A stretch of DNA of 64,000 bases from Nemertoderma westbladi (taxonomy: Eukaryota; Animalia; Xenacoelomorpha): assembly GCA_032718475.1 (NCBI GenBank), contig JAUCBJ010003070.1:126279-190278 (forward strand). The letters are read 5' to 3'. Of this stretch, positions 16,274 to 60,609 are shown piece by piece (positions within the stretch are counted from its first letter, which is position 1; each line of letters opens with the position of its first letter). The notes under the pieces are model-generated. The model made no database searches and was not told the DNA's origin. It worked only from the letters and a program-made list of their open reading frames with translations. The position numbers and the translations under genes were made by a program.

Positions 16274-16291
16274 CCGCTCCCAGAAAATGGG

Positions 16292-36029: not shown

Positions 36030-36540
36030 GGTCTGAGGCACAGACTATGCCTCACTGAGGCTCAGACTATGCCTCACTGAGGCATTGAGGCACAGACTAT
36101 GCCTCACTGAGGCACATACTATGCCTCACTGAGGCACAGACTATGCCTCACTGAGGCACATACTATGCCTCACTGAGGCACAGACTATGCCTCACTGAGG
36201 CATTTAGGCACAGACTATGCCTCACTGAGGCATTGAGGCACAGACTATGCCTCACTGAGCACAGACTATGCCTCACTGAGGCACCGACCATGCCTCACTG
36301 AGGCACAGACTATGCCTCACTGGGGCACTTAGGCACAGACTATGCCTCACTGAGGCACAGACTATGCCTCACTGAGGCACTTAGGCACAGACTATGCCTC
36401 ACTGAGGCATAGACTATGCCTCACTGAGGCACTGAGGCACAGACATTGCCTCACTGAGGCACAGGCTATGCCTGACTGAGGCACAGACTATGCCTCACTG
36501 AGGCACTGAGGCACAGACTATGCCTCTCTGAGGCAAAGAC
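36030..36540. repeat. 22/30-bp palindromic tandem array in left TIR
   Basis: Unit cagactatgcctcactgaggca, containing TGCCTCA-C-TGAGGCA. Confidence 0.95.
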
Positions 36541-40008: not shown

Positions 40009-41353
40009 TGTTCGCGCTTTTGAAGACCTTTAGCAGTTTAACCTGCCAAAATTTATATGTCTTTTAGTTAATTAACACACCTTTAGCATACGACAATATT
40101 TTATGCTAATAAACAAAACATTAGCCGAAGCCAGCCCATGCGCGATCATTCACCCGATGGATACACCCGGGAGGCTGAATTCGGATGCTTAAATTTTATT
40201 ATTGCAGTGTAAGGTTGCAGTGTAAACCTACTGTATTATTCGATTGATCGTTAATAATTAATTTCTGACAGATATTATTAGCTTTCGGGAAATATTAACA
40301 GTTCCTTTAGGACGTGGCGCTCTATCTATTTAAACAGAGCTAGGACTTATACTAAACGCAACGATAATGCTTATGATTAAAGTATAAGGCGCATTCTTTA
40401 GGAAATGCTTTGTTACCAATCACAATCATGCACACGATTCTGCCGACCGTCAGTAAATTTGATCACACATAAAGAGAACAGCAATTGACTCATGTAGTGT
40501 CTGCTAAATAACATTAGATTCAATACACACCACATTGATATAAATCGCAATTATTATGTATAGCCTGTCTCTCTAACCTGTAGTGTATCAAGAAAATTGG
40601 GAATTTTGGGTGATTTATCCGTATTCTCCAAAGGGCAATATTTCATCAACAAATCGATACAATTAATAACTGACGGTAAATAACAGTACAAACAATATAA
40701 TTAATAAGTAAAGTTCGGGAGAATCATATGACTACCAGTGAGTTAGTTAGTTAGTGAGGTAACAGTTATACTTTCAATAATTTAAGCAGTTTTACTAGAG
40801 TTCTTCCCAAAAGCCGGTGTTATGGCGAAAAATGGGAACACAACAACAGAATCATATGAAGAATCATATGACTACCAGTGAGTTAGTTAGTTAGTGAGGT
40901 AACAGTTATACTTTCAATAATTTAAGCAGTTTTACTAGAGTTCTTCCCAAAAGCCGGTGTTATGGCGAAAAATGGGAACACAACAACAGAATCATATGAA
41001 GAATCATATGACTACCACTCTATACGAGGATACCAACTACCCTTATTCCCCGAAGCTCCCGTCCAACACAGAGGATGAGCATACAGATAGGAAATTCAGT
41101 TCAGTAGCTCTGGGATAGGTCGAAATCAACGCCAACTCAAATTCTATTGGCCGATACGGAACACAGGGCTGAGGCAACCTCCCTAAGCTGGTTGGCCGAT
41201 CAAACAGAACCCAGATCCCTTCGCACAGCAAATCAGCCAATCAGCCGGTAGCTTGCACTATTCTAGCTAGATATCCCTTTTTAGAGTATTCAGCGACTGG
41301 GGGGAACTGGTTAGCAAAGCAAACGAATCAGTTATCCCACAAAAGCTTTTACA
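40009..41353 (-). repeat. 3' LTR (contains a 140-bp tandem duplication at ~40721-41017)
   Basis: Direct repeat of 57609-58953; preceded on the sense strand by the short purine tract GGGAGCGG (41354-41361). Confidence 0.97.
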
Positions 41354-41431
41354 CCGCTCCCAGAAAATGGGATTTAAGTCTATAAAATATACAAAATCAC
41401 AGTTTCTAAAATATAAAAATACTCTAAACAG

Positions 41432-44400
41432 TTAGTCTTTTTTGCGCGGACGGCGTTTACGCAGTTTTTTAAAGCTAGCAAGAGTCTTTTTCTCTTTGGG
41501 GCGAGCCACTTTACGAGGAGGGCTATAACTCCTGGGTGAAGGGTGCAATATGATTGCATCAGAAGGTATGGGATTACGATCGGTATATCCGCCGGTCGAA
41601 GTGCCGGGTTGGTCGACTTCCACTTCGGTGGGGAGGGGTTTAACGACCTTTAGAGCGCGTTTTAAGACGGCTGCTCTTACGGGTCCTTTAAGAGTCGTCT
41701 GAACGAGAGCCGTGGGTGGGCCATAGGCAGTCAGAAACTTCCTTGGTTTAATGGTTCTTTCCAACTCGCGTTCGCGGGCTCGGTACTCGTAAGGCCGTCG
41801 ATATACTTCCTGTAATTCGGGGTGTGAGTTGACAAATAAGTCTCCATAGGCAGGGTCTTGACGGATAAAGTTTATTAAGTTGTAAGAATAGATGTCACTC
41901 GGATTAATGCTCCTGAGAAATTTGCGTACATATTTGGTTGAAATACATTCTCCAATGCGCTTCAGTAGTTCATAACTTGATAGGCGTGATTTCTGCTCGA
42001 CGGAGGCAAACAAATAAGGATGGAACGCATAAACTCCTTCGTAAGCGCGTCCAGGGTAATAGCGATGGCGTGAATCACAATGTAAATCAGCGTTCGCTTC
42101 CCAAGCTCTGATATAACGTAGTACAATCATTTCATCTACGCTCTCTAAATCATGATTAAAGGGACAATCAAAGCTGGCGTGTCCTTTTAATTGACAATGA
42201 TGGCATTGAGTCATAAATTGGGGGCAGACAGCAAAAATGTGCAAATTATTAAGCCGACAATATGCACAATAGATTTCCATCGACGGTTGCTCGTGGAAAT
42301 AGGAACAGAGATCGTTGGTGTCCATAGACGTAATATGGTCTCTCGATGCGCACAGCCGACAACGTTGTCGAGAAACATAATTGGCATGGCGATAATCATA
42401 CGCAGTAAGACACTGTGGACCTTGATACCATTCCAATATGTAGTCGCTATCGCTACTCCGAGACGTGGGGGGCTGAATCTCTTCAGATTCTAAACATATG
42501 GGTTCGTCTTCCCCTTGTATAGTTGAGGTAGGCATGGCCGTCTCCTCAAGTGGACCTACCGTCTGAATTTCCACGACAGAATAACCTGTGGGGATTCGAG
42601 GTCTTTGGATAACAGAGGAGTGCAGGTTTATTATACAAATGTCTTTGAAAATAGCAAATCCAGCGCTATCTAACTTCTCCGCAGCCGAGTCTCTTAAGCT
42701 GAGCTTGGTCAAAGCGCGGTCTTTGAATTGGCTATCCACGTTGCGAAACGGGGTTAAAAATCGTCGGAAACATTCAAAGCGGATGAATTTATTATGTTCA
42801 TCTAGCTTAGCGAGTTTGGTCCCAAGTATTAATGGATGGGCGCGTATAGTACGACTGCACACATCGGCTAGCCAACCGGAAAGTGCGGTGTTTTCGAAGA
42901 TCGTGTAGATAGCTAAGGAGGGGCGGAGTGGAACACTCATGAAGCTATACACGGCGCCAGGTGCGGTCAACGGTCCGTCAAAGTATAATCGAGAATAATG
43001 GTCTCCGTATACTTGTTGATAGTTGATGGGATTTCCGACCTTGAAATTCCATCCGTATTCCTGAAAAGCAAGATGTCCGATGGAAGTTCGTTGCACCTTT
43101 GTAATGTTGCTAGACGCATTAGCATACATGGTGCGAAAGAAACCTCGGCCTTCGGCCCAAGGAGCTATCAGCTGAGTATCCACGAAAGGATAGGGGATAT
43201 TTTCCATATTCCGAAAGTCGTTTTGGAGATCTCCGTAAACAGCTGAGCCGATTTTAATGATTCTTTCGTTGAATAACATCTCGAGAACGGGCTGGGGTAA
43301 CATCGATCCATCGATACCCATGGCCGGTTTGCGTTCGGTGTCAATGACGTAACGCTGCGCGAGTTCGAATTGTCCATGTCGGAGATTCTTTTGCGTTTCG
43401 GTGAGAGTTTCAAAGGAATAATCGATCACGTCGGAACACGCTCGCGTAAACACGTGAGTGGAACCAGCTAATCCGCGTATGTGTATCATGCGCGTAGTTC
43501 CTAATTCTCCGATTGGAACGCTACCTTCGTTATCGTAAGTAACAACGCCATACATCTCAATGATATTAAGAGTTTCATTCCACTCTTTGGTGGCGTTCTC
43601 GAGGGTCATCCCTACTGGATGCCACAAGGTGGCGCATTGATTAGCGTCAGGGAGATCACTATACTTCATGTATCGAGTGGTATACGTCTCCACATTTCCA
43701 TATCTTTGTATTTTCTCCTCCTCGAATAATACGTCTAGATTCCAATGGACTAATCGAGTTTTAATAAATCCATCGAGATTATAAGGAGGTTCTGTATCCT
43801 TCTCTATTCGAGAAACGTTATATGGTTTTCGAAATGAGTTTACCTTTACTAACTGATCCAGATGTTTTTGCAATTGTTCGAGTTCGACAATGTCCAGAGG
43901 ATTTATTAGTGGTAGAAACTTTAAATTATGCGTCGGATCTTCTGGTTTTACCATATAATATTGAGTCAGATTAACGTAATAAGGGTGGTCTTTAATTCCA
44001 TAAAAAGAGTTCTGTAAAGGTCTAGCGCGTATGTTGACATCGTGTACCATACGACGGACAAGATCCGCTCGATTGTCCGGAGGTTCAACGAGTATACCGT
44101 CAACTCGAGCGGCCTCGATTGGCGGACGCTGTAACATAGGAGCGTCAGCGATAAGATTTTGCGATCTTATGCTGATATCAACCGGTTGGGGTTGTATCTT
44201 TGCAAAAAGTTTGTCTCCGAAATGCGGAACCATCGAGGGATGACGGACGGTTTTAGAGTAGAGATCGGTTATGAGTATCTGAGCTTCGGGTTGGGCTAAA
44301 GCGGCTTCTTCTCTCTCATCCATTTCCGTATGTTTCTCCTCTAGTTGATTTTCCTCCGCTTGTTTCTGTAAGCGTTCTTCTAGAAACTCCTGTAGAGAAT

Positions 44401-45685
44401 ACGTACGTCCAAGCTCGATGTCCTCTTCGAGGTTTTGGATTTCTCTATCAAACTGCGGCAAGGCTAACTCTTTCACCGATTGGACCTGCTGCTGTAATTT
44501 ACGTTTCTCTAGAAAATCCTGTGTTCCCTTTCCGATTTTCTGTCGGATGGCGTCTAAAGCGTTTCTGATGACACTCTCCTCGACTTCCGTGGCAGGTTGT
44601 ATCGGAGTTAATCCTGGCCGATTGTAAGGATTAAATGGCGATGTTAGATGCCCGCGTCCCAATCCGGTTAAATAGGATGGTCGAATATCTAACGAACCTA
44701 CCGCTGGAACACCACCGATTAACTGCTCGGGTAACACCAAATCTTTGAACAGTGAGTATAACTCGGGAGGATCAGTGATACTGTTAGGATCAAGAGTTTG
44801 AGGTCTCACTGGGGAATGAGGAGGCCTGACCGAGTATTCCGGAACTCTGATCATGGGTTTATTTAGCGATCGTTTTAGACGGGCGATCGTAGGTGATACG
44901 TCGAACAGGTTTCGCTCGAAACTCCCGTAAGTATAACGCGTAAAACTGTGTTTAGCACAACGTCTCCGCGGATGTTTATGTCTTTCCGTTTGCTGGTTAG
45001 GTCTAGGGCATGAGTCACAATAATACCAAAGACGTACGTCCTGCAGAGGAAACGCGGGTGATCGTTCTCCAGTTTTGCAATACTCTTCCATTTGTTCAAA
45101 GCTGTCCGGGACAACAGGCAGTGGACGATCTGCGGTAAGATACATCATGGTGAAATAGAGTCGTTTGAGTTCTACCATGGGATCGTGATGTATACCTTGA
45201 GGATATCGAGTCTCTAGGTTCTGTTGACTGGCAATATTGAGATAGGTTTCTCTCAAAAATTCCAAGTAGTCGTTGAAGTTGATGCGCTTATCGGGTTCTT
45301 CAACGTTTTCTCTGTCGAGTAGGTTGCGAATAGAGTTCTCGTGTTCTATTCTCGGTTTATCATTACGATTCCGCTGGGCATGATATTTAAATAAAACCAT
45401 TTCCCTTTCGGTGTCTACATCTTCCGTATCATGTAAATCGGTAGGATGGCCGGTAGTTAAGAAGTCCATATACGTACCATTACGATTCGTATAGCGAGCG
45501 GTGAATTTTCTATAGTCCAATTCACGCGTAAGTTGTTCCTGGGACATCGGCGGTTCGATATAACGACCATCGTCCTCCGTAATAGTCGGATCGGCTTCAC
45601 CGCGTATCAAGCTATCCACAAACGCTTGTAAAGGTAGAGTATATCGCTCTCTAATACCAAGGTCATCTTCTATCAATTCCGTCAT
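41432..45685 (-). CDS. Accessory ORF3: 1417-aa protein with DEDDy (RNase D/WRN/EXD-like) 3'-5' exonuclease domain and CCHC zinc knuckles
   Basis: ExoI VVTYDNEG (aa ~714), LPQPVLEMLFNERIIKIGSAVYGDL (ExoII), FVDTQLIA, SIGHLA...GWNFK, PLRPSLAIYTIFE (ExoIII-like); CAYC-x5-H-x4-C and CHHC-x4-H-x4-C; basic C-terminus; no obvious signal peptide or TM. Confidence 0.75.
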   Translation of the reverse strand: MTELIEDDLGIRERYTLPLQAFVDSLIRGEADPTITEDDGRYIEPPMSQEQLTRELDYRKFTARYTNRNGTYMDFLTTGHPTDLHDTEDVDTEREMVLFKYHAQRNRNDKPRIEHENSIRNLLDRENVEEPDKRINFNDYLEFLRETYLNIASQQNLETRYPQGIHHDPMVELKRLYFTMMYLTADRPLPVVPDSFEQMEEYCKTGERSPAFPLQDVRLWYYCDSCPRPNQQTERHKHPRRRCAKHSFTRYTYGSFERNLFDVSPTIARLKRSLNKPMIRVPEYSVRPPHSPVRPQTLDPNSITDPPELYSLFKDLVLPEQLIGGVPAVGSLDIRPSYLTGLGRGHLTSPFNPYNRPGLTPIQPATEVEESVIRNALDAIRQKIGKGTQDFLEKRKLQQQVQSVKELALPQFDREIQNLEEDIELGRTYSLQEFLEERLQKQAEENQLEEKHTEMDEREEAALAQPEAQILITDLYSKTVRHPSMVPHFGDKLFAKIQPQPVDISIRSQNLIADAPMLQRPPIEAARVDGILVEPPDNRADLVRRMVHDVNIRARPLQNSFYGIKDHPYYVNLTQYYMVKPEDPTHNLKFLPLINPLDIVELEQLQKHLDQLVKVNSFRKPYNVSRIEKDTEPPYNLDGFIKTRLVHWNLDVLFEEEKIQRYGNVETYTTRYMKYSDLPDANQCATLWHPVGMTLENATKEWNETLNIIEMYGVVTYDNEGSVPIGELGTTRMIHIRGLAGSTHVFTRACSDVIDYSFETLTETQKNLRHGQFELAQRYVIDTERKPAMGIDGSMLPQPVLEMLFNERIIKIGSAVYGDLQNDFRNMENIPYPFVDTQLIAPWAEGRGFFRTMYANASSNITKVQRTSIGHLAFQEYGWNFKVGNPINYQQVYGDHYSRLYFDGPLTAPGAVYSFMSVPLRPSLAIYTIFENTALSGWLADVCSRTIRAHPLILGTKLAKLDEHNKFIRFECFRRFLTPFRNVDSQFKDRALTKLSLRDSAAEKLDSAGFAIFKDICIINLHSSVIQRPRIPTGYSVVEIQTVGPLEETAMPTSTIQGEDEPICLESEEIQPPTSRSSDSDYILEWYQGPQCLTAYDYRHANYVSRQRCRLCASRDHITSMDTNDLCSYFHEQPSMEIYCAYCRLNNLHIFAVCPQFMTQCHHCQLKGHASFDCPFNHDLESVDEMIVLRYIRAWEANADLHCDSRHRYYPGRAYEGVYAFHPYLFASVEQKSRLSSYELLKRIGECISTKYVRKFLRSINPSDIYSYNLINFIRQDPAYGDLFVNSHPELQEVYRRPYEYRARERELERTIKPRKFLTAYGPPTALVQTTLKGPVRAAVLKRALKVVKPLPTEVEVDQPGTSTGGYTDRNPIPSDAIILHPSPRSYSPPRKVARPKEKKTLASFKKLRKRRPRKKD

Positions 45686-47307
45686 ATCTGCTATCTGAGT
45701 TTATTAATATCAGTATGAGTTAATATTTAGGCAAGCGGGCGTCGCTGCCTACTAGTCTTTGCCCCCGGACAGTGGGTTTCTCAGCGCCGATGTACCGTCG
45801 TCGCGGTGTTTACGCCAACATGTAGCAACAGCACGACAACGATAACCGGCACAAGTCCCACCACTGTCCGTCCCAAAGGCTTGAATCCACTTGAGGTTAT
45901 CTCGGTAGAGTTAGGGCTACTTTACAATTGCGATTAGCTACTGTAAACACACTTTAGTAGTAACATTCACCTATAAACGCCCAAATTCCATACAATTGGA
46001 CAATTACTTACTGCATACATGCAGGCCATTTGTCCGTTAATCAGTGTCTTCCAGAATGTCACGTTATTACTATGTATCCTTGGATACTAATAGTGCGCTA
46101 TGTATACTCTTATGCTACGCAATGGGGCAAGCTTTTTATTGTTCCTTTAACTTGCTTCTAATTCTAGCGTGGGTGTTGCCATGGTGACATTATGGAAAAC
46201 TAGCGGTAGAATTAGAGTAATTCTCATGCATACAGATCTGGGATGCTATTTAATAGTAATTCTTTAATTGTCAATATCCTCTTTATGCATGATTTTATAA
46301 ATTTTATCGGCTATTGACTATATGTTGGAGATTCTCGCACTCTAGTACACTCAATATGAATCTCCGCTCCCATGATCTATTAATTACTGGAATTTTGGGA
46401 ATGTTATAAATTGCACAAAATGACAATTTATGAAATTCATTTGAATATGAATTTAAATTTATTCCCGTGAATTTTATTATTTGATGTTAAATTGACACAA
46501 ATTTCATTCCAGAGCATATCTGGGGACTTAGGATCCTTAATTCTATAAAATAGTCCTTCTAAGAATATCGGTAAATACTGCGATATCTTAATTGACTAGA
46601 AATTTTAAAGGATCGGGATTTTACAGATTTTAATAAATATTAAATTAATATTTAGGATGAGCACCGATTTATTCCAGAACTTGTCTGGGGACGTTAACCA
46701 CTGATTCTAGAATTTGTCTTTCAAGTATATCGGTGGGTGCTACGATATCTTAATCGACTAGAATTACAGATGGTCAAAAAGTTTAACAGATTTATTTGCG
46801 ATTTACGCTACTGTTAGAGGGACATCACGCTACTATATGTATTATTTGTTATAAGGTAGAAGAGCAATATCGCACGAAGCAATGTCAGTGTGAAGAGGCA
46901 AGTCGTTTCCAAGGTCTACCCAGAGCTTGGTTTAGCCGAGACACGAGGATCTGAACTTTGCATTCCTAATACTCTGCCTACCAATAATACTTAAATATAG
47001 TAGTGGCTTTATTGTACTTTAATAAGTACTGACATGTCATCTTACTATAGTCTCGCATTTATAATATAATACGGACAGTAAGGAAAGAGAAAATAATTAT
47101 TTCTTGCCGTCGCACTAAATATATTATAGGTAATTAAATACGTAATAAACACTAATATATTGCACTAATTTACTAAATATTCTAAAATAACATTTTACTA
47201 AATAAAATTAAATAAAAACGATTATAATAACGTACATAATAACATTTACATATAAAATGTAATAAAAATAGATAAAATAATATAGACATACACCCACTCC
47301 AGACGTA

Positions 47308-47982
47308 CTACGTTGAAGAGCCCCTAGATGTTTGAGGTATTAGGGAGGTGGTCGTGGGAAGGGTTTCTTGCCTTCCATAGTTTCCGGAGAGTTCCCGGTC
47401 TCTTTCCAGCAAACATAAACGACCAACCGGGCGATTGAGTTGTTGCGTCTCAAAGATTATGCCGGGTTTCTTGAAGTTACGTCGCATGACGACGAGTTCT
47501 ACCGAGCGCACTAGACCATCCTCCGAGATGTGCGTCTCGATGATACGACCTATCTGCCACCGTCTACGTGGAAGGTCCGGATCTACAATAAGGACCATGT
47601 CTCCGGCGCTGACATTTTCCTGCTGCGCAAACCACTTAGTTCGAAGTTGTAGCGTGGGCAGATAATGTTTCTCAAAATGGTCAGCGAAACGACGGGATAG
47701 CAACTGCATAAGCTGCCAAGTTCGACGACAGTATTCATCTCCATCGGCAATCTCGGATTGTGGGAGCATGGCTACAGGTTTCTTAAGTAGGAAGTGCGCG
47801 GGTGTTAGCGCTTCCAGGGAGTCGAGACTCGATGAGACTGGCATAAGCGGTCTCTCGTTAAGATAGGCAGCGATTTCTTCCATTAACGTCCGCAGAAGTT
47901 CGTCGGTGAGATATGCACGGCACGGCACTATAAAGCGGTCTTGACACTTCGAATTAATCTCTCCCAACTTCCTCCCCACCAA
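47308..47982 (-). CDS. pol: Integrase C-terminal part, separated from pol by a frameshift near 47930
   Basis: LTDELLRTLMEEIAAYLNERPL, LTPAHFL, YLPTLQ.R.KW, W..GRI...DGLVRSV: a typical BEL integrase tail. Confidence 0.9.
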   Translation of the reverse strand: MVGRKLGEINSKCQDRFIVPCRAYLTDELLRTLMEEIAAYLNERPLMPVSSSLDSLEALTPAHFLLKKPVAMLPQSEIADGDEYCRRTWQLMQLLSRRFADHFEKHYLPTLQLRTKWFAQQENVSAGDMVLIVDPDLPRRRWQIGRIIETHISEDGLVRSVELVVMRRNFKKPGIIFETQQLNRPVGRLCLLERDRELSGNYGRQETLPTTTSLIPQTSRGSST

Positions 47983-50900
47983 GGGGCGTCGGCGGCGTTA
48001 AAGGTCCAGCTAGACGCCGTTATCCGTAGCTGGTCGTCCACCTGTCTTTGATTCCAGTCCTTTACGTAAGCCTGAATTTCGTTGTTGGCACCAATGAAGT
48101 TCGTTCCCTTATCGGATCTCATCGTGTTGCTAGTTCCGAAACGAGCGATCTGTCGTCGTAAACATAAGACGAAGCTGTTAGTAGATAGATCGTTCACCAT
48201 ATCGAGATGGATAGCTCTACAAGTCATGCAGACAAAGATTACACACCATCTCTTGACTATAGTTCTAGCACGATACACTTCAATAGGGCCAAATAAATCC
48301 ACACCAGTATTAGTAAAGGGTGGTTCATAAAAGCTTACTCGTTCCCTAGGTAATTCTGCCTCTCGCTGTGTTAAAGGCCTACTGAATGCTTTCCTACAAG
48401 GTATGCAGTTCCTAAGAACTTGATTCAGAGCTCTACGTGGTCTATGAAAATAATAGCGAGTTCGAATTTCGCTAAGAACTCGTTCTCTACCAGCATGATA
48501 CAGTTTACTGTGAACATCTACAATCATCTTGATTTGTACTTCAAGATTACTAATGAGTATAGGGAATTTAGTATCAAAGGATAATGGTGCGTTGGTAAGT
48601 CTTCCTCCAACACGTATTAACCCATCTATCATTGTGCTAGAGAAGCGATCCCTTAAGCGCATCTGCGGATTTCTCAATAACAGAAAATACCTATCGGAAT
48701 CCTCATAGCATTGCAGGAGTCTCAGTAGCTGCTTATTAGTTTCTTCATGCTCCTGGTAACTGATCTTCTCCTTTAGAAACCGGTCTGATATCTTGTACTT
48801 AGGTAGATCTTTAATAACATGAACTTGCGCAGATGTCACTGGAGCAGGATCACTAGTGGTCTGCGTCCTGGAGTAGTGATGGTGAAAACATCTCTTTAAG
48901 TATGTGACGGCTTTACAGAGACGATTCCAGGAACTGTAATGATGCAGTGCTCTCTGCAGCAGGGGTGAGATTCCTTGCGAGACGTCTGGTATCCCAGATT
49001 TCCAATCTCTGTCTCTAATTTCCACAACAGACTTGTTTGTGGCGAGGGATTGTGGATCCAAAGTATCGTTTTCGGCAGTATGTAATACAGATAGATCGAT
49101 TGTTGGTTTAAATAACTTCGATTTACTTGTCCGAGTTTTGGGTTTGACTTTCTCCGCTCCCTTGGCTTGTCTAATCTCAGCCGTAGTAAGGTGAGGAGGC
49201 CATTCATCCTCTTCCTTGCTCAGGAAGTCGGGTCCACCCAACCAGTCAGGAGTATCTATCAGTTCCTGTGGAGTTGCTCCTCTGGAGGCGATGTCAGCTG
49301 GGTTAATCGTACCAGGGCAATGTCTCCATTGATCTATCGTTGTGCGACTAAGAATAATGGCCACTCTGTTAGTAACAAAGACGCTGAACTGACAGACTTC
49401 ATTCGTTATATATTCCAACACAAGTAAAGCGTCGGTCCAATAAACAGTTTTCTCCAGTGGATAATCGATCTGTTCTGTTACATTCCGTCCGATAGCTGTA
49501 GCGTATAAAGCTGCTTTTAACTCTGCCCGAGGAACCTTCAGCTTGTTGTTAATCAATGCCTTAGAGGTAACCAAGGCAACTTTGATTCCATCCGGAGTTT
49601 CGACTCGCAGGTATGCTACTATACCTATTCCCATATCGCTGGCATCTCCGAATACATGGAGTTGATAGGAATATGTAGGGAGAACATGACCAAAATATGA
49701 ACGGGAAATTATAAAGTTCTCGATGGCAGGTAGCGAGTCCTCCCATTTCATCCATTTCTTTAATAGTTCTCCCTTGAGTGGATCGTCCCACGAGTGGTTT
49801 TCAAGCCACATTTGTTGTACTAAACTCCGAGCAATCAATATAACTGGGCTAATAAATCCCAAGGGATCGAAATAAGTGCTCAGAATACTTAAACAAATCC
49901 GTTTGGTCCGAACTGGATTATCTCGCTGTTTTAGCTGAAAAAACAGGATATCTCTTTCTGTGTCCCACTTCAAGCCAAGCGTCTTGGTTTCCGGAAGATC
50001 GTCATGTATTAAGTCGAGGTCTTTTGATCCCCGGTCTTCTACAGATATTGCTTCCAGAAACTCACGGGAGTTGCTGGTGAACTTCGTCAATCGAAATCCA
50101 CCTCTTTTCAAACACTCAACCGTTCCTTTCGCGACATCAATGGCTTCTTTTACTGATGGAAGGGACTTTAAATTGTCGTCCATGTATATGTCTCGTTTGA
50201 TGTTATCTATCACCTCTTTGGAGAAGGCGTCCCGGTTGTCATCCGCAGTGGTACGAACCACTGAGCAGGCGTTTGAAGGGCTTGATATAATCCCAAAAGC
50301 CTGGATGGTCATCCAGTACTCTACCGGTTTCTGGTTGAGATCTCCTTCAGGCCACCACAGGAATCTTAGGCTGTCTCTATCACGATCCAACGCCTTGACT
50401 TCTAAGAACATTCCTTCTATATCGGAGGCGAACGCGATGGAATATTGTCTTAATCTTAAAAGTATTCCCAATAAAGATTGGAGCAAGTTGGGTCCTGGTA
50501 ACAACTCGGAATTGAGGGATTGGCCCATATATAGGGCGGAGCCATCAAATACGACCCGTACTTCATGGGGTTTACCGGGTTTGGGAACGTAATGATGTGT
50601 TAGATAATAAGTTCTTTCAGTTATTGGAGTTCCTTCCGGTACTCGCTCCGCATATCCCTTTGTGATAAATTTCTTCAACTGAGTTTGGTACATTTCCTTA
50701 GCTGAAGCATTTGCCGTAAGACGTCGATGTAATTGATTGATTCTTTTCTCAGCCAAAGGTCTGTTATTTATAAATCTAGGTTCCCGTTTTCGAAATGGTA
50801 GTCCGATTTCATATCTACCTTGATCTTTTAAAAAACGTGTGGTTGTTTCCTGGATTTGCTTGGCTCTTTCTTCTTCTATCGACAGGGCTTTGTCGTATGA

Positions 50901-53900
50901 ATTGGGTTCTACTAATTCTTGGGTAAAGAATCGTATGGCGAGTTCGTCCCGAGTTCTAGCGTTGTAGCGCTCTACCTCGTCATTAAGTTCGTCATTATAA
51001 ATCATGGATTCCGTTGGGCGAATCAGTTGACATAGGTTCGCTTGGTTTTTCCAAGTATGATTCTCTGTAAGTAGGTCAATTGTGTTCTCTTCTTCGAAGA
51101 GTTGGTAGATGTTGTCATTATCTGAGGAGTATGGTGTTCCCTCAGTTAGTTCGTCCACTTCACTGCTTTCCACTTCCCAATCGTTTACTTGATATATTTG
51201 TTCGTGTGGCATTCTCTCTTCGAGAGTTCTACGGGAAGGGCCAGTAAAGTACCAACCTACTCTAGTTCTTACCGCATAGGTTTGCAGTGGCTGTGGTTGA
51301 GCAGGCCGTTTCTCTAATGTTTCGAGCGCCTCGTGCGCGTTTTGGCCGATGAGTATTTGCACTCCAGGATAATCTGTCTGGAATCGAGGTATCTTAAGAT
51401 GTTGGATGCTCTCATCTTCGTCCCAATTATAAAGGTCTGCTTGAGTAGTAGCAAAGTTCTTTATAGCCACCATTTTTACTGACCTTATACCTTGTGTTCC
51501 TAACTTATCCTGGGGGGTGGACAACACACCTACATAGTAATCTGCCGTTAGGGTAGATTTCCAAACCTGCATAATTCCTGACATATTCAATTTAGTCCGG
51601 AACTTGGGTTGTCCAGCAAAGATATCTTCGGCTAGTTCTTGATCGATGAATGTTCCTGTGCTGCCGGAGTCAAGGAGGGCGTTCACTATGTAGCTTTTGT
51701 TAAGACCGTGAACTCTTACTTGAACTACAGGAAATTCTCTGATTCCTACGTTGGAAGCTGGAGCTTTCCAAGATGGTTGTTTGGTGAAAGTAGTTGGGGG
51801 AAACTCATCGTTGATGTCCTTTTCGTAAGTAAGTGCTCGATACACTGCGGTATTTATTAGATAACAGGATTCATTGGCATCGGAGAATTCGTCAGTATAG
51901 AATCCTTCCATCTCAGACTCTTGATCAGTGTCGTTTACGTCACTGAATTGGACATGTAGTTCGGGCTCACTTACCTGACTCTGTCTGTCTCGTTCGAACT
52001 CACTGTGTAACAAGATGTTATGTTTCGCGCCACACTTTGCACACTTTATGTCGGAGTAACAGGTTCGCCGTTGATGTCCTGGTCTGAGGCAATTATAGCA
52101 TAACCGCTTGTCCCATACGACTGTACATCTGTCTACAAGGGATTTCTTTAGAAATTCAGCACACGCACTCAAACAGTGGGTCCCGTCGCACAGCGCACAG
52201 TTAGGTTTTATGTTACTCACTTTACCTTGGGTAACTTGATGCACTCTCGTTTTTTCTTCGGGTTTTCTTCGGTGCATTCTGTTAGGAGACTGAGGAGGGG
52301 TCTTGGCAACCTGTTCTTTCCTATCGTTGTTTCGAGCCTTGTATTTACTTACGTCCTTTGAGGTTTTGTCAACATAGTAAGATCGGTCTGTGTCTTTCCC
52401 ACTGTCCTCTTCTTGGGAAGCTTGGCTTTCGCCGTCGTCAGTGTAACACACCGGTGTTACTCTTCTCCTAGAAGTGGGTTTCTCACTTACCTTATTTTCC
52501 GATGTTTTCTCTCTGGACTGCTTGATGAGTTGTAGTTTTACTTCACCATCTAAGAAAGACATGAGATCAGCCATGGTAGGACTTCGTCGTTGTTGTTCAT
52601 TCATGTACATCACTTTCTTGTCCCAGCGTGTACATACTCCACCCTTTGGTAAAGTAGAGACTACGGCTCCAATAACCATGGAACTCTGATATTCATGCGA
52701 CTTACCTAACCAGTCCAGTTGTCTACAGATCTCTTGAATCTCATCGGAAAACTCTATAATCCCGCTACTAAGGAAGTGTCGGGGGGCTACTAATTTTGCA
52801 TACAAATACTTAGCTATGTTATCCTTGTTACCATACCTGATGTTTAATGTATCCCAAACTTGTCTTAATCCTTCTGGATGTCCAATAAACTTTAACGCCA
52901 TTAACTTGGGAGGTCCTTCCAAGCACTTGATGAGGAATCTAAGTTTCTCTCCGTTAGATAGTACAGAGTTCTGTATGCTATCTTTGTAATATTCGTTGAA
53001 AGGTAACCATTTCATCTCATCTCCATTGAATTTGACGATCTCTCCCACTTTGACCGCTTGGCGGGCTTCTGTTCTAGCCATCTGACGCGTAAAGCTTTCT
53101 TGGGCCATCGTGTTATTTAATATCGAATTATCGGTATATAAATTTCTCGGATTATTATCAGGTCTATAGGGAATATTATTAGCAACAGGCGTATAATCAC
53201 CCTTAATAGGGTTTGCTATAGGAGTTTCTACTTCACTAGCAGTATAGATGCGTGTAGGCTCCACACCTTGCGCATGTAGTACTTCAGACCTAACAGGTTG
53301 ACACAATGTTACAGGGGGTATTGGTATGCCCTTTTGGATATTGACTAATTTGTCGCGTTCTAGTGCGATACTTTGCTGCACTTCTTGCAACTCTGCTCTA
53401 CCTTCCCTCACTGTTCCCTTAAGTTGGTGGACAGTCTCCTGCATCTGTCCTAGCAGGAGATTCATCCCCCGCCGTCCCTCTTCTACCCACTCAACCGCCG
53501 AAGCGGGAGTCGCCAACATAGTAGCGGGCTGACGCGGGACGACGGGAGACAAATCTTTGATTTCTCTCTCTGCTATCCGGACAGGGATATTCTCTTGGAC
53601 TGTTCCACCGGGTACAGGCAGTGTAGTACTATGTAAAGGGAATTTAGAGTTAAGCTCTGGAAGTATAGGGGTCTCTAACACAGAAGTGACTTTGGGAACG
53701 ACAGGCCTAATTATTTCAGGCTCATCAACTATTGTAGGGAGTCTTTTGACCTTAATAATTTGGGCTGTAGGTTCTATACTACTCAAGTCTGTGCTAGCTA
53801 GCTGTCTTCTAACAGCTGGGGGCAAATCAGGCAATTTGCGACGGTAAGATGTTTTTCTACGCCTACTTAGATGAGATCTATTTCCTCCGCCTTCAGGATC

Positions 53901-55043
53901 GGTGGTCTCGCCTTCCTCCGAGGATGTGTATCCCTGGCGCTTGGGAGTAGATTTTCTCATCATCTGCATTTGATTAGCAGTAAACTGTTTATTTAGACTG
54001 TCTTGCGTCTCTTGCAGATTTTCCAACTCCAGTTGGATAGTCTCCTCAGAAGCTCTCCGTTCTGCTTCTGCCACTGCTGCTTTTCTTTCTGCTTCTGCTT
54101 CTGCCGCCTTTCTTTCGGCTTCTGCTTCTGCCGCTTTTCTTTCGGCTTCTGCTTCGGCCGCCGCTGCTGCTGCCACCTTTCTTTTCTCTATCCGTTCTTT
54201 CTTTACTTGTTCTTCTCGGACTCTAGTGAGGCGGAGTTTTTCATCAAATTCAGCTTGGTTTGCAGCTAACATTTCGGCATCGATTGAGTCCAACACAAGC
54301 TTGGTTCCTTCACTATTAGGGGAAAGTCCAGACAGCCGTCTCCTCAACTCTTCGTCTCCTAGGAATCGCTGATAGTCGGACAGATAAATGTCGATAGCGT
54401 CTCTAGTTCGCGGTTTCTCGGCGGTCTCTTCGCTTTCCACTTGAGAAAGGGTGACATCAGTTTGTTCTTCATAGGTTGATCTTTCAGCCAGCTGGGATTT
54501 CCACTGGGCCGTTTCCTGTACTTTGAGACCTACCCGATGTAACCAAGTTTTGACAGCAACCTGCAGCGACGTATCCTGTCTTCTTTTGGAAGTTTCTTCA
54601 AAGGCTGAGAGGATTAGTCGAATGCGTAGGGTTCTTTCGCGTACTTGGTATAGCAGCTCTTCCTGCTCTTGAGGTCCTTGGGGTTGTCGAAACAGTTGTT
54701 CTTCCAATCGCTCCAAGGAGCCGAAGAATCCCTGCACATATCCTGCTGCCGACCTCTTCCAAACAGCTGGATCCATTGTATCTTTAGCCACTCCCATCCT
54801 GTGTATATCTTCCCAAGTAGCCTCGGACAGATCCAACGGGAGTCCGAGTCCGGGAAAGTTCCATTTTGACTCGACAATAGACATCAATTCTTCCCTGGCG
54901 TATCCCGCATAATTATCTTGGGTCGCTCGCTTATTTCTCGCCCAGTCGGCTTGATGTTCCTCCACCGCAATGAATATAGTAGTTAGCACTGCAGCAGGAA
55001 GGGTGAGAAGGGGGTCCGAGTAGACTGTAGCAGCCATCTGCAC
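47928..55043 (-). CDS. gag-pol: BEL/Pao Gag-Pol polyprotein
   Basis: Gag with three zinc knuckles, PR LLDSGS, RT VRVVFDGS/DIEGMF/YMDD, RNase H VFGDAS...NPADIASRG, IN HHCC plus GVDLFGP/SDKGTNF/WERL. Confidence 0.97.
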   Translation of the reverse strand: MQMAATVYSDPLLTLPAAVLTTIFIAVEEHQADWARNKRATQDNYAGYAREELMSIVESKWNFPGLGLPLDLSEATWEDIHRMGVAKDTMDPAVWKRSAAGYVQGFFGSLERLEEQLFRQPQGPQEQEELLYQVRERTLRIRLILSAFEETSKRRQDTSLQVAVKTWLHRVGLKVQETAQWKSQLAERSTYEEQTDVTLSQVESEETAEKPRTRDAIDIYLSDYQRFLGDEELRRRLSGLSPNSEGTKLVLDSIDAEMLAANQAEFDEKLRLTRVREEQVKKERIEKRKVAAAAAAEAEAERKAAEAEAERKAAEAEAERKAAVAEAERRASEETIQLELENLQETQDSLNKQFTANQMQMMRKSTPKRQGYTSSEEGETTDPEGGGNRSHLSRRRKTSYRRKLPDLPPAVRRQLASTDLSSIEPTAQIIKVKRLPTIVDEPEIIRPVVPKVTSVLETPILPELNSKFPLHSTTLPVPGGTVQENIPVRIAEREIKDLSPVVPRQPATMLATPASAVEWVEEGRRGMNLLLGQMQETVHQLKGTVREGRAELQEVQQSIALERDKLVNIQKGIPIPPVTLCQPVRSEVLHAQGVEPTRIYTASEVETPIANPIKGDYTPVANNIPYRPDNNPRNLYTDNSILNNTMAQESFTRQMARTEARQAVKVGEIVKFNGDEMKWLPFNEYYKDSIQNSVLSNGEKLRFLIKCLEGPPKLMALKFIGHPEGLRQVWDTLNIRYGNKDNIAKYLYAKLVAPRHFLSSGIIEFSDEIQEICRQLDWLGKSHEYQSSMVIGAVVSTLPKGGVCTRWDKKVMYMNEQQRRSPTMADLMSFLDGEVKLQLIKQSREKTSENKVSEKPTSRRRVTPVCYTDDGESQASQEEDSGKDTDRSYYVDKTSKDVSKYKARNNDRKEQVAKTPPQSPNRMHRRKPEEKTRVHQVTQGKVSNIKPNCALCDGTHCLSACAEFLKKSLVDRCTVVWDKRLCYNCLRPGHQRRTCYSDIKCAKCGAKHNILLHSEFERDRQSQVSEPELHVQFSDVNDTDQESEMEGFYTDEFSDANESCYLINTAVYRALTYEKDINDEFPPTTFTKQPSWKAPASNVGIREFPVVQVRVHGLNKSYIVNALLDSGSTGTFIDQELAEDIFAGQPKFRTKLNMSGIMQVWKSTLTADYYVGVLSTPQDKLGTQGIRSVKMVAIKNFATTQADLYNWDEDESIQHLKIPRFQTDYPGVQILIGQNAHEALETLEKRPAQPQPLQTYAVRTRVGWYFTGPSRRTLEERMPHEQIYQVNDWEVESSEVDELTEGTPYSSDNDNIYQLFEEENTIDLLTENHTWKNQANLCQLIRPTESMIYNDELNDEVERYNARTRDELAIRFFTQELVEPNSYDKALSIEEERAKQIQETTTRFLKDQGRYEIGLPFRKREPRFINNRPLAEKRINQLHRRLTANASAKEMYQTQLKKFITKGYAERVPEGTPITERTYYLTHHYVPKPGKPHEVRVVFDGSALYMGQSLNSELLPGPNLLQSLLGILLRLRQYSIAFASDIEGMFLEVKALDRDRDSLRFLWWPEGDLNQKPVEYWMTIQAFGIISSPSNACSVVRTTADDNRDAFSKEVIDNIKRDIYMDDNLKSLPSVKEAIDVAKGTVECLKRGGFRLTKFTSNSREFLEAISVEDRGSKDLDLIHDDLPETKTLGLKWDTERDILFFQLKQRDNPVRTKRICLSILSTYFDPLGFISPVILIARSLVQQMWLENHSWDDPLKGELLKKWMKWEDSLPAIENFIISRSYFGHVLPTYSYQLHVFGDASDMGIGIVAYLRVETPDGIKVALVTSKALINNKLKVPRAELKAALYATAIGRNVTEQIDYPLEKTVYWTDALLVLEYITNEVCQFSVFVTNRVAIILSRTTIDQWRHCPGTINPADIASRGATPQELIDTPDWLGGPDFLSKEEDEWPPHLTTAEIRQAKGAEKVKPKTRTSKSKLFKPTIDLSVLHTAENDTLDPQSLATNKSVVEIRDRDWKSGIPDVSQGISPLLQRALHHYSSWNRLCKAVTYLKRCFHHHYSRTQTTSDPAPVTSAQVHVIKDLPKYKISDRFLKEKISYQEHEETNKQLLRLLQCYEDSDRYFLLLRNPQMRLRDRFSSTMIDGLIRVGGRLTNAPLSFDTKFPILISNLEVQIKMIVDVHSKLYHAGRERVLSEIRTRYYFHRPRRALNQVLRNCIPCRKAFSRPLTQREAELPRERVSFYEPPFTNTGVDLFGPIEVYRARTIVKRWCVIFVCMTCRAIHLDMVNDLSTNSFVLCLRRQIARFGTSNTMRSDKGTNFIGANNEIQAYVKDWNQRQVDDQLRITASSWTFNAADAPWWGGSWERLIRSVKTAL

Positions 55044-55094
55044 TCCGCGTTCGGGGGTCAGCTCTACAGTATCCGAACTACTGGAGCTATCGGG

Positions 55095-55349
55095 TCACTG
55101 GGAAGTAGGTTCTTGACCAAGATGTTGCTGCGATAGGACAACTGCCTCTTGGTTCCGTTTGACCTGTGCTCGAGTGCCTATGATGGACCTATGGTGGACT
55201 AGCCTAGGGTCTGATACTACTGGAGGGATGACCTTTCTTGCAGTAGGAGGTGAGCTGAACTCCTTTCTTAATCGCTCCACACTCCTATCTGTGTCACAGA
55301 TGGTTGTATCGATCAGACTGTCTGACAGGTTTTGCTGAGTGTCAGACAT
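55095..55349 (-). CDS. gag: Probable true N-terminus of Gag, separated by one in-frame TGA
   Basis: Same frame as 55043; MSDTQQNLSDSL matches the start MSDTKRALSDSL of the sister element. Confidence 0.8.
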   Translation of the reverse strand: MSDTQQNLSDSLIDTTICDTDRSVERLRKEFSSPPTARKVIPPVVSDPRLVHHRSIIGTRAQVKRNQEAVVLSQQHLGQEPTSQ

Positions 55350-56719
55350 GTTTATCTATACAGTTGAATGTCTACTACTATAGTTTCAGTTAAAGCAAGT
55401 CTAGTAATTCAGTATGACCGCAAGCCTAGCGATTTATTACCGATACCGTTACTCGGTGTAATGTGATATATATACAATATATTAGAATACCGGTATGCTT
55501 ATAGTATATATATAAGTATTATTACAGACTAGCTTTGTCACACAGTACCGGTATATAATTTTAGCACAAATATATATAAATATATAATAGGCCTATCGTG
55601 AATACCGGTATACAGCTTACACTTATAGTATATATAAGTATAATTATGAACTAGAATTAATTACAGAATACCGGTATGATTTCAGCTCAAATTTATAGAA
55701 ATAAATATAATAAGCCTATGGTAAATACCGGTATGTCAATTATTTTTAGAATAATTGAATTTCTGAATATTTTAGGGTTACTTGGTTACTTTAACTTACT
55801 TTATTACCGTTATTTAAGCAGTAGTCCAACTGATATTGAGACCTAGTTGTTGTATGGCAGGCCTACTATTTATAAATCGTTTGAGTTGATTTATAATATA
55901 TATATACCCGTTTAAAATGGGTTTTGTCTATATTTGAAATAAATGTTATTATTCCTGGGGTTCACTACACAGAAGCTGTGCGCTCTCAGTGAAGTGCTAT
56001 TTATGGGACACTAAAACAGATAATTCTAATTTACCTAAGTTACTTAATACTACAAATTACTTACGATACGGGTGAGATTAATTTCTCTAATTAAAATACA
56101 ACAAAAATATTACGTACGAAATTTTTTAGGGTAATTTTACAGGAAGTCTACAAACCAGCCTAACAAAGGGTTAGATTTCTGGTTATTACAACGGACAGGG
56201 TACTACGGTATTTGAAATAATAAGTAGCAGTAAATATATTGCACTGTCCAGATAGGAAAATACCACCGCCTGACGACCTATAACCGTATCGCTATAGGTA
56301 CTACGTTATGTATCACGGAGTGTTCCTACCCAGAAGTTAATAGAGCTAACGAATGTGCCTATCAACCACTTTACAACACAAATATACTGCCTACACACTA
56401 ATTACTTCGGAAAGCACTGTACACTAAACCCTAAATTAGGTACAAGTACCGGTACAACAAATAATCAGTAGTTAAATATACTTGAACAGTTAAAAGAACC
56501 ACGGCATCTGCTGGAGTGACCAGAGCACAAAGTCACCAGTCTTGTCCTACGCCAAGCAGCCCGTGTAGTACCGGGGTTAATTTAACTATAACGGTATGTA
56601 TAACAAGCACAATTACTGTAGGAATAAACTTGGGGACATGAATGTTGCGAATAATCGCATAAACTCTGAATAATAAATATTACGCTACCCGTACAGAATA
56701 CTCAAACAAAATACAAACC

Positions 56720-57560
56720 AAACGCTGGCAGACTACCACCAAGCCTAAATAAACTACCGTACGTGTAGATTCTGAAATGGTTAGTTAGTATGCGTTCTAA
56801 CACGGTAGTACGACTTATTCTTTAAGAGGGGATTGACCTTACAGCATATGGCTGCCCCAACTTACTAACGGCACTTTATCAGACAAACTCCACACACACA
56901 GCAATCTCTTCAGACCTAATAATAGCTAGACAACAATCCAGCCTACAAAATATCTGAGTAATAACTATTACGGTACCTGAACAGACCACACAAACAAACA
57001 CAGGCTAAAACGCTGGCAGACTACGATCAAGCCTAAATAAACTACAGTATATGCAGATTCTGAAATAGTTAGTTAGTATGCGTTCTAACACGGTAGTACG
57101 ACTTATTCTTTAAGAGGGGATTGACCTTACAGCATATGGCTGCCCCAACTTACTAACGGCACTTTATCAGACAAACTCTACACACGCCGTAATCTCTCCA
57201 AACCCAACAACAGTCAGACAGCAGCTCAGCCTACAATTATCTGAACAATCTGAGCAGACTTACACGTCTTCAGCTCAATATTAACTTACTAGGAAATAAA
57301 ACCGACAGAAATAAGTAAAATCTCAATAAAAACCAGGGCTGCAGTCCCTGATTAAATACTAAGACCTACCGGTATACAATAATCAAATTCGAATAATACT
57401 AATGTACTTATACAGCAGTACCGGTTAGGACAGTTGGGCCTACAGACCTACAGAAGTACCGGTTCCGGCAGTTGGACCTACGGACCTACAGCAGTACCGG
57501 TTCTGGCAGTTGGGCCTACTGACCTACAGAAGTACCGTTTCAGGTTTACCGGTCACTACG
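56720..57560. repeat. Leader repeats: ~288-bp duplication and four ~38-bp units near the PBS position
   Basis: aaacgctggcagactac at ~56720 and ~57008; (c/a)agtaccggtt...gacctaca repeats at 57415-57560; same layout at 23864-24710. Confidence 0.85.
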
Positions 57561-57608
57561 GTATTTTGCAACCTTATTGCTTACTGCAATAAGATCTATA
57601 ACTGTTAC

Positions 57609-58953
57609 TGTTCGCGCTTTTGAAGACCTTTAGCAGTTTAACCTGCCAAAATTTATATGTCTTTTAGTTAATTAACACACCTTTAGCATACGACAATATT
57701 TTATGCTAATAAACAAAACATTAGCCGAAGCCAGCCCATGCGCGATCATTCACCCGATGGATACACCCGGGAGGCTGAATTCGGATGCTTAAATTTTATT
57801 ATTGCAGTGTAAGGTTGCAGTGTAAACCTACTGTATTATTCGATTGATCGTTAATAATTAATTTCTGACAGATATTATTAGCTTTCGGGAAATATTAACA
57901 GTTCCTTTAGGACGTGGCGCTCTATCTATTTAAACAGAGCTAGGACTTATACTAAACGCAACGATAATGCTTATGATTAAAGTATAAGGCGCATTCTTTA
58001 GGAAATGCTTTGTTACCAATCACAATCATGCACACGATTCTGCCGACCGTCAGTAAATTTGATCACACATAAAGAGAACAGCAATTGACTCATGTAGTGT
58101 CTGCTAAATAACATTAGATTCAATACACACCACATTGATATAAATCGCAATTGTTATGTATAGCCTGTCTCTCTAACCTGTAGTGTATCAAGAAAATTGG
58201 GAATTTTGGGTGATTTATCCGTATTCTCCAAAGGGCAATATTTCATCAACAAATCGATACAATTAGTAACTGACGGTAAATAACAGTACAAACAATATAA
58301 TTAATAAGTAAAGTTCGGGAGAATCATATGACTACCAGTGAGTTAGTTAGTTAGTGAGGTAACAGTTATACTTTCAATAATTTAAGCAGTTTTACTAGAG
58401 TTCTTCCCAAAAGCCGGTGTTATGGCGAAAAATGGGAACACAACAACAGAATCATATGAAGAATCATATGACTACCAGTGAGTTAGTTAGTTAGTGAGGT
58501 AACAGTTATACTTTCAATAATTTAAGCAGTTTTACTAGAGTTCTTCCCAAAAGCCGGTGTTATGGCGAAAAATGGGAACACAACAACAGAATCATATGAA
58601 GAATCATATGACTACCACTCTATACGAGGATACCAACTACCCTTATTCCCCGAAGCTCCTGTCCAACACAGAGGATGAGCATACAGATAGGAAATTCAGT
58701 TCAGTAGCTCTGGGATAGGTCGAAATCAACGCCAACTCAAATTCTATTGGCCGATACGGAACACAGGGCTGAGGCAACCTCCCTAAGCTGGTTGGCCGAT
58801 CGAACAGAACCCAGATCCCTTCGCACAGCAAATCAGCCAATCAGCCGGTAGCTTGCACTATTCTAGCTAGATATCCCTTTTTAGAGTATTCAGCGACTGG
58901 GGGGAACTGGTTAGCAAAGCAAACGAATCAGTTATCCCACAAAAGCTTTTACA
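57609..58953 (-). repeat. 5' LTR
   Basis: Direct repeat of 40009-41353. Confidence 0.97.
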
Positions 58954-59369
58954 ACTATAACTGGGAGAGTCAAAGCTAGTGTACACTAGAGTCAGTCAAG
59001 AGCTAGGAAAAATAATAATGCTCATCTAGGGTTCGAACTCACGACCTTCTAATTAGAAAACTAAGCAAATGATCCAGCTTGAATGCTTTAGACCCTTACT
59101 CTTAGGCATCGAGCAGCCAATGAGAGAGCAGATGCAAGTACAGTGGTAAAGCCCATCCATGGAGAGATATGTTCACACTAACTCCCAAGGATAGTTATAC
59201 TCACCATTCAAATATCCCTTTCAAACCAAATTCCCCCAGCATCTAAAGTATTCCACTTCAGTGCAAAATATATAGAGATTTAGTTGGATTTTAACTTGTG
59301 CTTGCAAACTCTTTTGTGCTCGTATATTATAATTTATTGTTCATGTAACGCAATATAACTCGGCTATTT

Positions 59370-60035
59370 AGTCTGTGCCTCAGTGAGGCATAGTCTATGC
59401 CTCATTGCCTCAGTGAGGCATAGTCTGTGCCTCAGTGCCTCAGTGAGACATAGTGTGTGCCTCAGTGAGGCATAGTCTGTGCCTCAGTGAGGCATAGTCT
59501 GTGCCTCAGTGAGGCATAGTCTGTGCCTCAGTGCCTCAGTAAAACATAGTCTGTGCCTCAGTGAGGCATAGTCTGTACCTCAGTGAGGCATAGTCTGTGC
59601 CTCAGTGCCTCAGTGAGGCATAGTCTGTGCCCCAGTGCCTCAGTGAGGCATAGTCTGTGCCTCAGTGCCTCAGTGAGGCATAGTCTGTGCCTCAGTGAGG
59701 CATAGTCTGTGCCTCAGTGCCTCAGTGAGGCATAGCCTGTGCCTCAGTGAGGCAAGTCAGTGCCTCAGTGAGGCATAGTCTGTGCCTCAGTGAGGCATAG
59801 TCTGTGCCTCAATGCCTCAGTGAGGCATAGTCTGTGCCTCAATGCCTCAGTGAGGCATAGTCTGAGCCTCAGTGAGGCATAGTCTGTGCCTCAGTGAGGC
59901 ATAGTCTGTGCCTCAGATAGGCATAGTCTGTGCCTCAGTGCCTCAGTGAGGCATAGTCTGTGCCTCAGTGCCTCAGTGAGGCATAGTCTGTGCCTCAGTG
60001 AGGCATAGTCTGCGCCTCAGTGAGGCATATAGTCT
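59370..60035. repeat. Palindromic tandem array in right TIR
   Basis: Reverse complement of the 36030-36540 array, with more units. Confidence 0.95.
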
Positions 60036-60139
60036 GTGTCTCAGACCTAAAACTCGAGACTTTAGGAGTGTCTCAGGTCTTAAATCAGAGTCTTACAAAT
60101 TCGAACGTCAACGAACAAATTCGAACGTTACTGTTCCAC

Positions 60140-60225
60140 CTTGGTGTAGTGGTTGTATTGAATTCACATCTCCCATATGTCATGGGTTCGATCCCCCGCA
60201 TGGACCAGGGCAGTTTTCGTTCGGT
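60140..60225 (+). mobile_element. tRNA-derived SINE head embedded in the TIR (mirror at ~35852-35937, minus)
   Basis: A-box TGGTGTAGTGG, B-box GGTTCGATCCC, then ccagggcagttttcgtt as in the SINE at 25675. Confidence 0.65.
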
Positions 60226-60609
60226 CAGCAATAGGCCTAACTATACAAAATGGAGTATTATTGCCTAGTAACCAATTTATAGCTACTATATCATAGCAAC
60301 TTTTCGACAGTTGGACAACACTATTGACCATTGCATGTCGGGGCGCTAATCGGTCTGATTAATTAGGATAATCAAATAAACCCTAATTAGGAGTCATAAG
60401 ACACCTATTAGGGTTTAATTGTACTAATTAATTGATGACACCTATCAATTAGGGTCTAATTAGCCTAATTAGGAGGTGTCACCCAGACAGTCTGGCGCCA
60501 ATGACACCCAATGACACCCATAGGGTGATAATAGGGTGTCATATGACACGCAATCGGTGTCAGTGTGGTCCAATGTCACAAAGCCGGCCAAACTTCTACT
60601 TCTTCCCTT

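Follow-up and report, generated by a model that had tools for sequence, protein, structure and literature searches.

Putative self-priming of reverse transcription in a giant BEL/Pao retrotransposon of Nemertoderma westbladi

Tf1 and Tf2 of Schizosaccharomyces pombe, and the Tf1/sushi group to which they belong, lack a tRNA primer-binding site (PBS), and about 11 bases that follow their 5′ LTR are complementary to a site within the LTR; according to the sections on Tf1 in PMC7175516, the RNA's initial 11 bases pair with the PBS and RNase H cuts between bases 11 and 12. For the plant elements Tcn1 (gypsy) and TAR (copia), self-priming has been predicted from at least 10 complementary bases that start 0–5 bases past the LTR (PMC6317226, sections on priming), a rule that we apply here to another superfamily in another host. 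BEL/Pao elements are described in the Belpaoviridae profile with an 18-base PBS for tRNA-Arg or tRNA-Gly, a genome of 4.2–10 kb and LTRs of 0.2–1.2 kb (PMC8742986), the tRNA-type PBS being a described trait and not the basis of the taxon. In the literature searched, where coverage of subscription journals is thin, we found no paper on self-priming in BEL/Pao: the terms “tRNA” and “priming” are absent from PMC554778 and PMC3118150, and the available portions of PMC13524379 and PMC5443660 add nothing on BEL priming. Self-priming of a BEL/Pao element would bring a known mechanism into a family whose reference description says that a host tRNA primes, adding a third superfamily beside gypsy and copia; it would also account for the many BEL elements of invertebrates that PBS finders overlook, and would give a sequence rule to locate BEL transcription starts. 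The nematode BEL element Cer7 reportedly encodes its own tRNA-like primer, which would be a different route.

The window analyzed here is a stretch of 64,000 nucleotides from N. westbladi, for which an earlier note, made from the sequence alone, had proposed tRNA-independent self-priming in a BEL element. Self-comparison of the window together with Pfam domains delimits this element as follows.

40009–58953, minus strand: main BEL/Pao element, 18,945 bp
57609–58953, minus strand: 5′ LTR, 1345 bp, TG..CA ends
40009–41353, minus strand: 3′ LTR, 1345 bp, TG..CA ends, with the PBS-complementary site at 40770–40759 and 40910–40899
58958–58954 and 40008–40004: target-site duplication ATAGT, 5 bp
57795–57800, minus strand: candidate poly(A) signal, the sole AATAAA of the main LTR, which the sister LTRs (see below) do not preserve in this form
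47928–55094, minus strand: gag-pol frame, 2388 aa from stop to stop, with protease, reverse transcriptase (RT, YMDD), RNase H and integrase core, ending inside the integrase
47308–47997, minus strand: C-terminal part of the integrase (DUF5641), in another frame than gag-pol
41432–45700, minus strand: ORF2 (1422 aa), in which zinc-knuckle-like motifs and a probable exonuclease domain of the DEDDy type were seen

The LTR end together with the target-site duplication fixes the boundary of the element. As the two LTRs show only four differences over 1345 bases, the element is young and has transposed recently; its pol is broken inside the integrase, the DUF5641 part sitting in another frame. Pfam matches comprise Peptidase_A17, DUF1759, Integrase_H2C2 and DUF5641, and the closest database relatives of gag-pol are BEL/Pao polyproteins of marine invertebrates and fish (36–43% identity). 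With its Pao-type peptidase and RNase H, DUF1759 gag, the domain order PR-RT-RH-IN, TG..CA LTR ends and a 5-bp target-site duplication, the element resembles the Belpaoviridae (PMC8742986), from whose profile it differs in its length of 18.9 kb, its LTR of 1.35 kb and the lack of a tRNA PBS. The pol domains are those of BEL/Pao and not of the Ty3/gypsy chromovirus type that marks Tf1/sushi elements, a group of the Ty3/gypsy superfamily. In a quick tree from an unfinished search, the RT forms a long branch outside the clade of its relatives.

The sequence that follows the 5′ LTR and its counterparts within the LTR are located as follows.

57597–57608, minus strand: PBS position, 12 bases directly past the CA of the LTR, without TGG
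58359–58370, minus strand: LTR site complementary to the PBS, the putative self-primer, at the border of variable U3 and shared R-U5
58499–58510, minus strand: second copy of the PBS-complementary LTR site
58320–58617, no strand assigned: perfect 140-bp tandem duplication (2.1 copies) that contains both site copies and is present in both LTRs
57896–57903, minus strand: second, 8-base complement of PBS positions 2–9 in the shared R region, altered in the sister 3′ LTR
57570–57596, minus strand: leader hairpin of 11 bp that abuts the PBS and covaries with the sister hairpin

As the earlier note had it, no tRNA-type PBS is present: TGG is absent from the first eight bases after the 5′ LTR, so that the 18-base PBS that would bind tRNA-Arg or tRNA-Gly by its 3′ end is not found. 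The exact 12-nt complementarity that had been reported was recovered as well, between the sense sequence 57608–57597 and both 58370–58359 and its duplicate 58510–58499. By chance, a match of this length arose at offset 0 in 4 of 20,000 dinucleotide shuffles, and within offsets 0–5 in 4 of 5,000; across the window, 196 of 62,580 positions have the complement of their 12-mer within the 1345 bases upstream. With 12 bases at offset 0, the element passes the self-priming rule given above, and the distance between PBS and site leaves a loop of ∼750 bases. Inside the element we detected neither an internal 8-base copy of the PBS complement that could serve as an encoded primer elsewhere nor a tRNA gene (ARAGORN, none; Rfam, five weak matches, none near its threshold). 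The arrangement is like that of Tf1, from which it differs in that the site lies 750 bases from the LTR end, is duplicated and only presumably sits near the transcript start, and in that the adjoining hairpin is wholly contained in the leader.

A second, related insertion lies in the same window.

15066–25609, minus strand: sister element, flanked by the target-site duplication CTGCT, internally deleted
24753–25609, minus strand: sister 5′ LTR, 857 bp, ending in TA, with ∼330 bases of R missing
15066–16273, minus strand: sister 3′ LTR, with the same U3 as the sister 5′ LTR and another R-U5 type; site at 15818–15810
24744–24752, minus strand: sister PBS position, 9-base match
25146–25154, minus strand: sister LTR site; identity of the two sister LTRs stops 22 bases downstream (25124 / 15788)
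24712–24742, minus strand: sister leader hairpin, 13 bp

The sister element has lost the RT, most of the integrase and most of ORF2. In agreement with the earlier claim, its PBS matches its own LTRs too, over nine bases (24752–24744 with 25154–25146 and 15818–15810). Taken alone, this match is weak and marginal: it was reached in 164 of 20,000 shuffles at offset 0 and in 197 of 5,000 at offsets 0–5, an 11-base window test did not beat its controls (138 of 300 shuffles), and nine bases fall short of the at least 10 of the self-priming rule. A matched change of PBS and site, also claimed before, was found at position 1, which with its partner reads G-C in the main and A-T in the sister element; this amounts to one event seen in two copies. 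Two further claims held in part. The site had been placed at almost the same distance from the LTR end in both elements (∼744 vs ∼750 bases), which is correct for the sister 3′ LTR (744) but not for the 5′ LTR beside the PBS, where the distance is only 393 because ∼330 bases of R are missing. The hairpins do covary, yet by substitution (C-G to T-A, and T.G to C-G) and not by the change in length that had been described; one of these changes is double and the other single-sided.

Between the two sister LTRs, identity is 99.6% as far as 22 bases past the site and falls to ∼82% below that point, so that the sister element is, as judged from its sequence, chimeric. The insertion has an intact duplication and carries LTRs with a common U3 and different R-U5 types. 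This mosaic would fit strand transfer between two molecules, gene conversion or a chimeric assembly. The switch point would coincide with the place expected of a strand transfer at the beginning of R, and if it is the scar of such a transfer, the 5′ end of the RNA would lie at or above that point.

The U3 sequences of the main and sister elements had been called unrelated, and we find the same: similarity starts at the site and is continuous only from ∼60 bases below it. Family contigs were available from four runs of four studies (three runs from organism A and one from organism B; run X1 may derive from the source of the window, and run X4 is only guessed to be RNA). In run X1, the summed contig depth is ∼270,000–1,900,000 below 58285 and mostly less than 150,000 at 58285–58889, with a step near 58285–58340. 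As public contigs pile far deeper below 58285, R-U5 is common to the family while U3 varies. Homology and depth both place the site at the U3/R border, compatible with a transcription start just above or just below it. TATA-like words occur at 58370 in the main and at 25167 in the sister element, although such words are common at 38% GC. By the motif consensus that we assume here, the start in either element would come ∼30 bases further down, immediately beyond the site, and the main element carries what we take to be an initiator-like CTCACT, its A at 58339 being 31 bases from 58370. The TATA-like words would favor a start below the site.

The family contigs also bear on variation of the PBS. 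Position 1 is G or A in three of the four runs, the change having a depth of 103,380 of 269,818 in X1, 37,116 of 153,794 in X2, 18 of 46 in X4 and 0 of 330 in X5. At positions 2–9, no change is listed at a frequency of 1 in 100 in the contigs of the four runs, an invariance that may be overstated as divergent contigs were clipped; the loose end of one X2 contig differs inside this core. Positions 10–13 are hypervariable, with substitutions, indels and a drop in depth, and a base added at position 10 in some contigs would extend the pairing with the sister-type site to 10 bases. One would expect a tRNA site of 18 bases to remain constant, and a short self-primer, recopied in every cycle, to vary at its distal end. 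The contigs are too short to link PBS and LTR site on one molecule. A search with a 20-base U5 pattern retrieved two metagenome stretches, both chance matches without other similarity, and no viral contig; protein scans of viral contigs gave no relative.

More distant relatives came from an alignment-based scan of GTDB prokaryote assemblies, which yielded 22 BEL/Pao loci (L003–L024) that are evidently host DNA and point to contamination of these metagenome-assembled genomes with animal DNA. RT identity of the relatives to the main element is 37–43%. Thirteen of the 22 loci were screened for LTR pairs, the nine short ones being left out; five of them have ends fixed by an LTR pair, two have inferred ends and six have no fixed ends. 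TGG is absent after the 5′ LTR in all five relatives with pair-fixed ends, and each matches its own LTR: L007, L008 and L013 with 11 of 11 bases and L006 with 10 of 11, in each case across a GTRAGT..YAG intron, and L010 contiguously with 11 of 11 at offset 4. Only 0–2 of 300 shuffled PBS words and 0–1 of 33 slid words reach the same scores. Between L008 and L013 the exon-1 bases differ (CAC vs TAA) and the PBS follows (GTG vs TTA). Matches of 11 of 11 were also obtained for L012 (best of 6 candidate ends) and for L005 (best of 34 candidate ends; same PBS as L007), in which the LTR ends are inferred. The seven matching loci represent five families from four assemblies. No convincing PBS–LTR match was found in the six other loci, whose LTR ends are not fixed; the best match of L011 (12 bases) was not counted, as it comes from 184 candidate ends and has a weak donor.

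The LTR introns of L005, L006, L007, L008, L012 and L013 span 162–1022 bases, all six with the donor GTRAGT, and are retained in both LTRs. AATAAA stands at or soon after the splice junction in the four intron-bearing relatives that were checked. Loops in the relatives measure 52–158 bases after splicing, or 110 in the contiguous case, vs 750 in the main element. In all seven matching loci, the 11-base core is followed above by a short bulge and then by 3–6 extra Watson-Crick pairs (shuffle p 0.004–0.12 each), and this pattern suggests that their transcripts may start some bases above the core. A primer built in this way would couple the onset of reverse transcription to the splicing carried out by the host. 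The main LTR, on the other hand, has no GTRAG donor, and a consensus intron with a PBS-matching junction is missing from the main element. Thus, the trait appears widespread in BEL/Pao; its inheritance in one clade with the main element is not implied, because the latter lacks the consensus intron and is a separate long branch in the quick tree.

Self-priming, as proposed earlier, is the best-supported reading of the locus, and the PBS pattern of the family and the distant BEL relatives add to its support. We consider it likely that some RNA of the element itself serves as primer, and Tf1-like self-priming by the site at the U3/R border, as stated for the main element, fairly probable from what its sequence offers. 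Transcription would start at or slightly above the LTR site, which would then pair with the PBS over 9–12 bases, close the ∼750-base loop and stack on the leader hairpin. The RT/RNase H of the element would cut immediately 3′ of the duplex and leave a 3′ OH, as shown for Tf1, and RT would extend the 11–12-base RNA piece and thereby prime minus-strand DNA. During plus-strand synthesis the primer would be copied back into the PBS, a step that would maintain the match between the two and blur its distal end (positions 10–13). On balance, we also favor the wider reading that a broad BEL/Pao branch has dropped tRNA priming for an 11–12-base self-primer, assembled by the spliceosome across an LTR intron or contiguous, and that the giant main element belongs to this branch as a member without an intron, its primer staying at the U3/R border while U3 modules are exchanged.

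ORF2 is moderately supported as a DEDDy-type exonuclease by sequence comparison. In the Atlas, residues 640–1010 match a PF01612 cluster with a score of 0.92, and the middle region has a single detectable relative among 1.84 billion representatives (E 1.4e-6), which itself has a sub-threshold hit to PF01612. ORF2 had no Pfam hit, no PDB match and no homolog in a word-index search, and tblastn against 24 fetched loci gave no match. The single-sequence structure model is unusable (pLDDT 31), and candidate catalytic motifs were assigned by eye only. A downstream ORF3 with a DEDDy 3′–5′ exonuclease-like domain is described for the bdelloid LTR elements Juno and Vesta (PMC5408684, section on ORF3), where the activity is only predicted, as in ORF2; the likeness lies in an extra downstream, exonuclease-like ORF, whereas the LTR lineages are different, and the link is weak. 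The speculation that the encoded exonuclease trims the primer end found no support: ORF2 is absent from relatives that carry the signature, so the exonuclease is not needed for priming.

The helix of PBS and site is part of the minimum-energy fold of RNAs that start at 58370–58510 (main) or at 25154–25170 (sister). Folding was rejected as support for self-priming, however, because loop-shuffled controls form the same helix equally (40 of 40 and 59 of 60). With longer 3′ context the helix was lost in two of three main folds and in all three sister folds. Folding thus indicates that the pairing would be possible, nothing more. Above the site, U3 of each element is complementary to the leader hairpin arm of the other (25155–25170 with 57589–57596 over eight bases, 58371–58375 with 24735–24740 over five bases). 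A longer duplex was discarded, as these cross-element matches are not significant (113 and 71 of 1000 shuffles), and in neither element does the duplex extend above the site with its own leader.

Among the other explanations, one places the site in U3 just above the start, so that only the copy at the 3′ end of the RNA could pair; the genome would circularize and a 3′-shortened end would prime, perhaps trimmed by the ORF2 exonuclease. The TATA-like words, which in both elements stand ∼30 bases above plausible starts immediately downstream of the site, would agree with it, as would the identical site in the 3′ LTR and the resemblance of ORF2 to a 3′–5′ exonuclease. However, trimming would presumably cost that molecule the R on which its strand transfer depends, the relatives show the signature without ORF2, the intron kept in both LTRs of the intron-bearing relatives would fit splicing of the 5′ copy and not of a templating 3′ copy, and TATA-like words are common at 38% GC; we regard this explanation as unlikely. 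Splicing of the main element's own RNA is another, very unlikely candidate, in which seven bases at the start of the site would be spliced to an acceptor that precedes the LTR end by 34 bases (57642), and the product would pair with PBS positions 2–12. With such a junction the match covers 11 bases from offset 1, like that of L008 and L013; the loop would shrink to 34 bases, and the variable position 1 would be left free. Yet the donor would be GTTAYC instead of the GTRAGT of all six intron-bearing relatives, the main LTR has no GTRAG donor or strong acceptor, the acceptor AG is missing from the sister 3′ LTR, 6 of 100 shuffles reach the score, and position 1 matches the unspliced site in both copies.

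The primer could also be a host RNA, for example the 5′ half of tRNA-Asn cut in the anticodon loop, with the LTR match being secondary; the complement of the PBS core reads like what we take to be the Asn anticodon loop. G or A at position 1 is compatible with wobble to U, positions 2–9 look fixed in the family contigs, and priming by half-tRNAs is known in copia lineages (PMC6317226, sections on priming). This explanation, which we consider quite unlikely, leaves unexplained both why two unrelated U3 types have an exact LTR site at the U3/R border and why the self-matching letters differ in five relative families, and no tRNA or curated RNA family was found in the element. That the match is due to chance, or is a relic inverted repeat without a role in priming, is highly improbable. 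The 196 window positions with a 12-base upstream complement and the marginal nine bases of the sister element speak for it, but the offset is exactly 0 and the score was reached in only 4 of 20,000 shuffles, the main element moved recently, with four LTR differences, while having no other primer site, and all five pair-fixed relatives show the same pattern.

The 2.5-kb leader of the main element (55094–57570) contains tandem repeats of 38 bp (3.4 copies) and 288 bp (2 copies). In L007, two long ORFs of 723 and 551 aa lie on the opposite strand between the 5′ LTR and gag-pol (L007:562–15350) and are probably a nested insertion. Elsewhere in the window, a tandem array with a 12-bp period and open frames on both strands covers 2878–4600, and a palindromic array with a 74-bp period covers 8977–9356. 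Another repeat, which has tandem units inside it, is present in two copies of inverted orientation at 34698–36798 and 59113–60603, one of which adjoins the main 5′ LTR.
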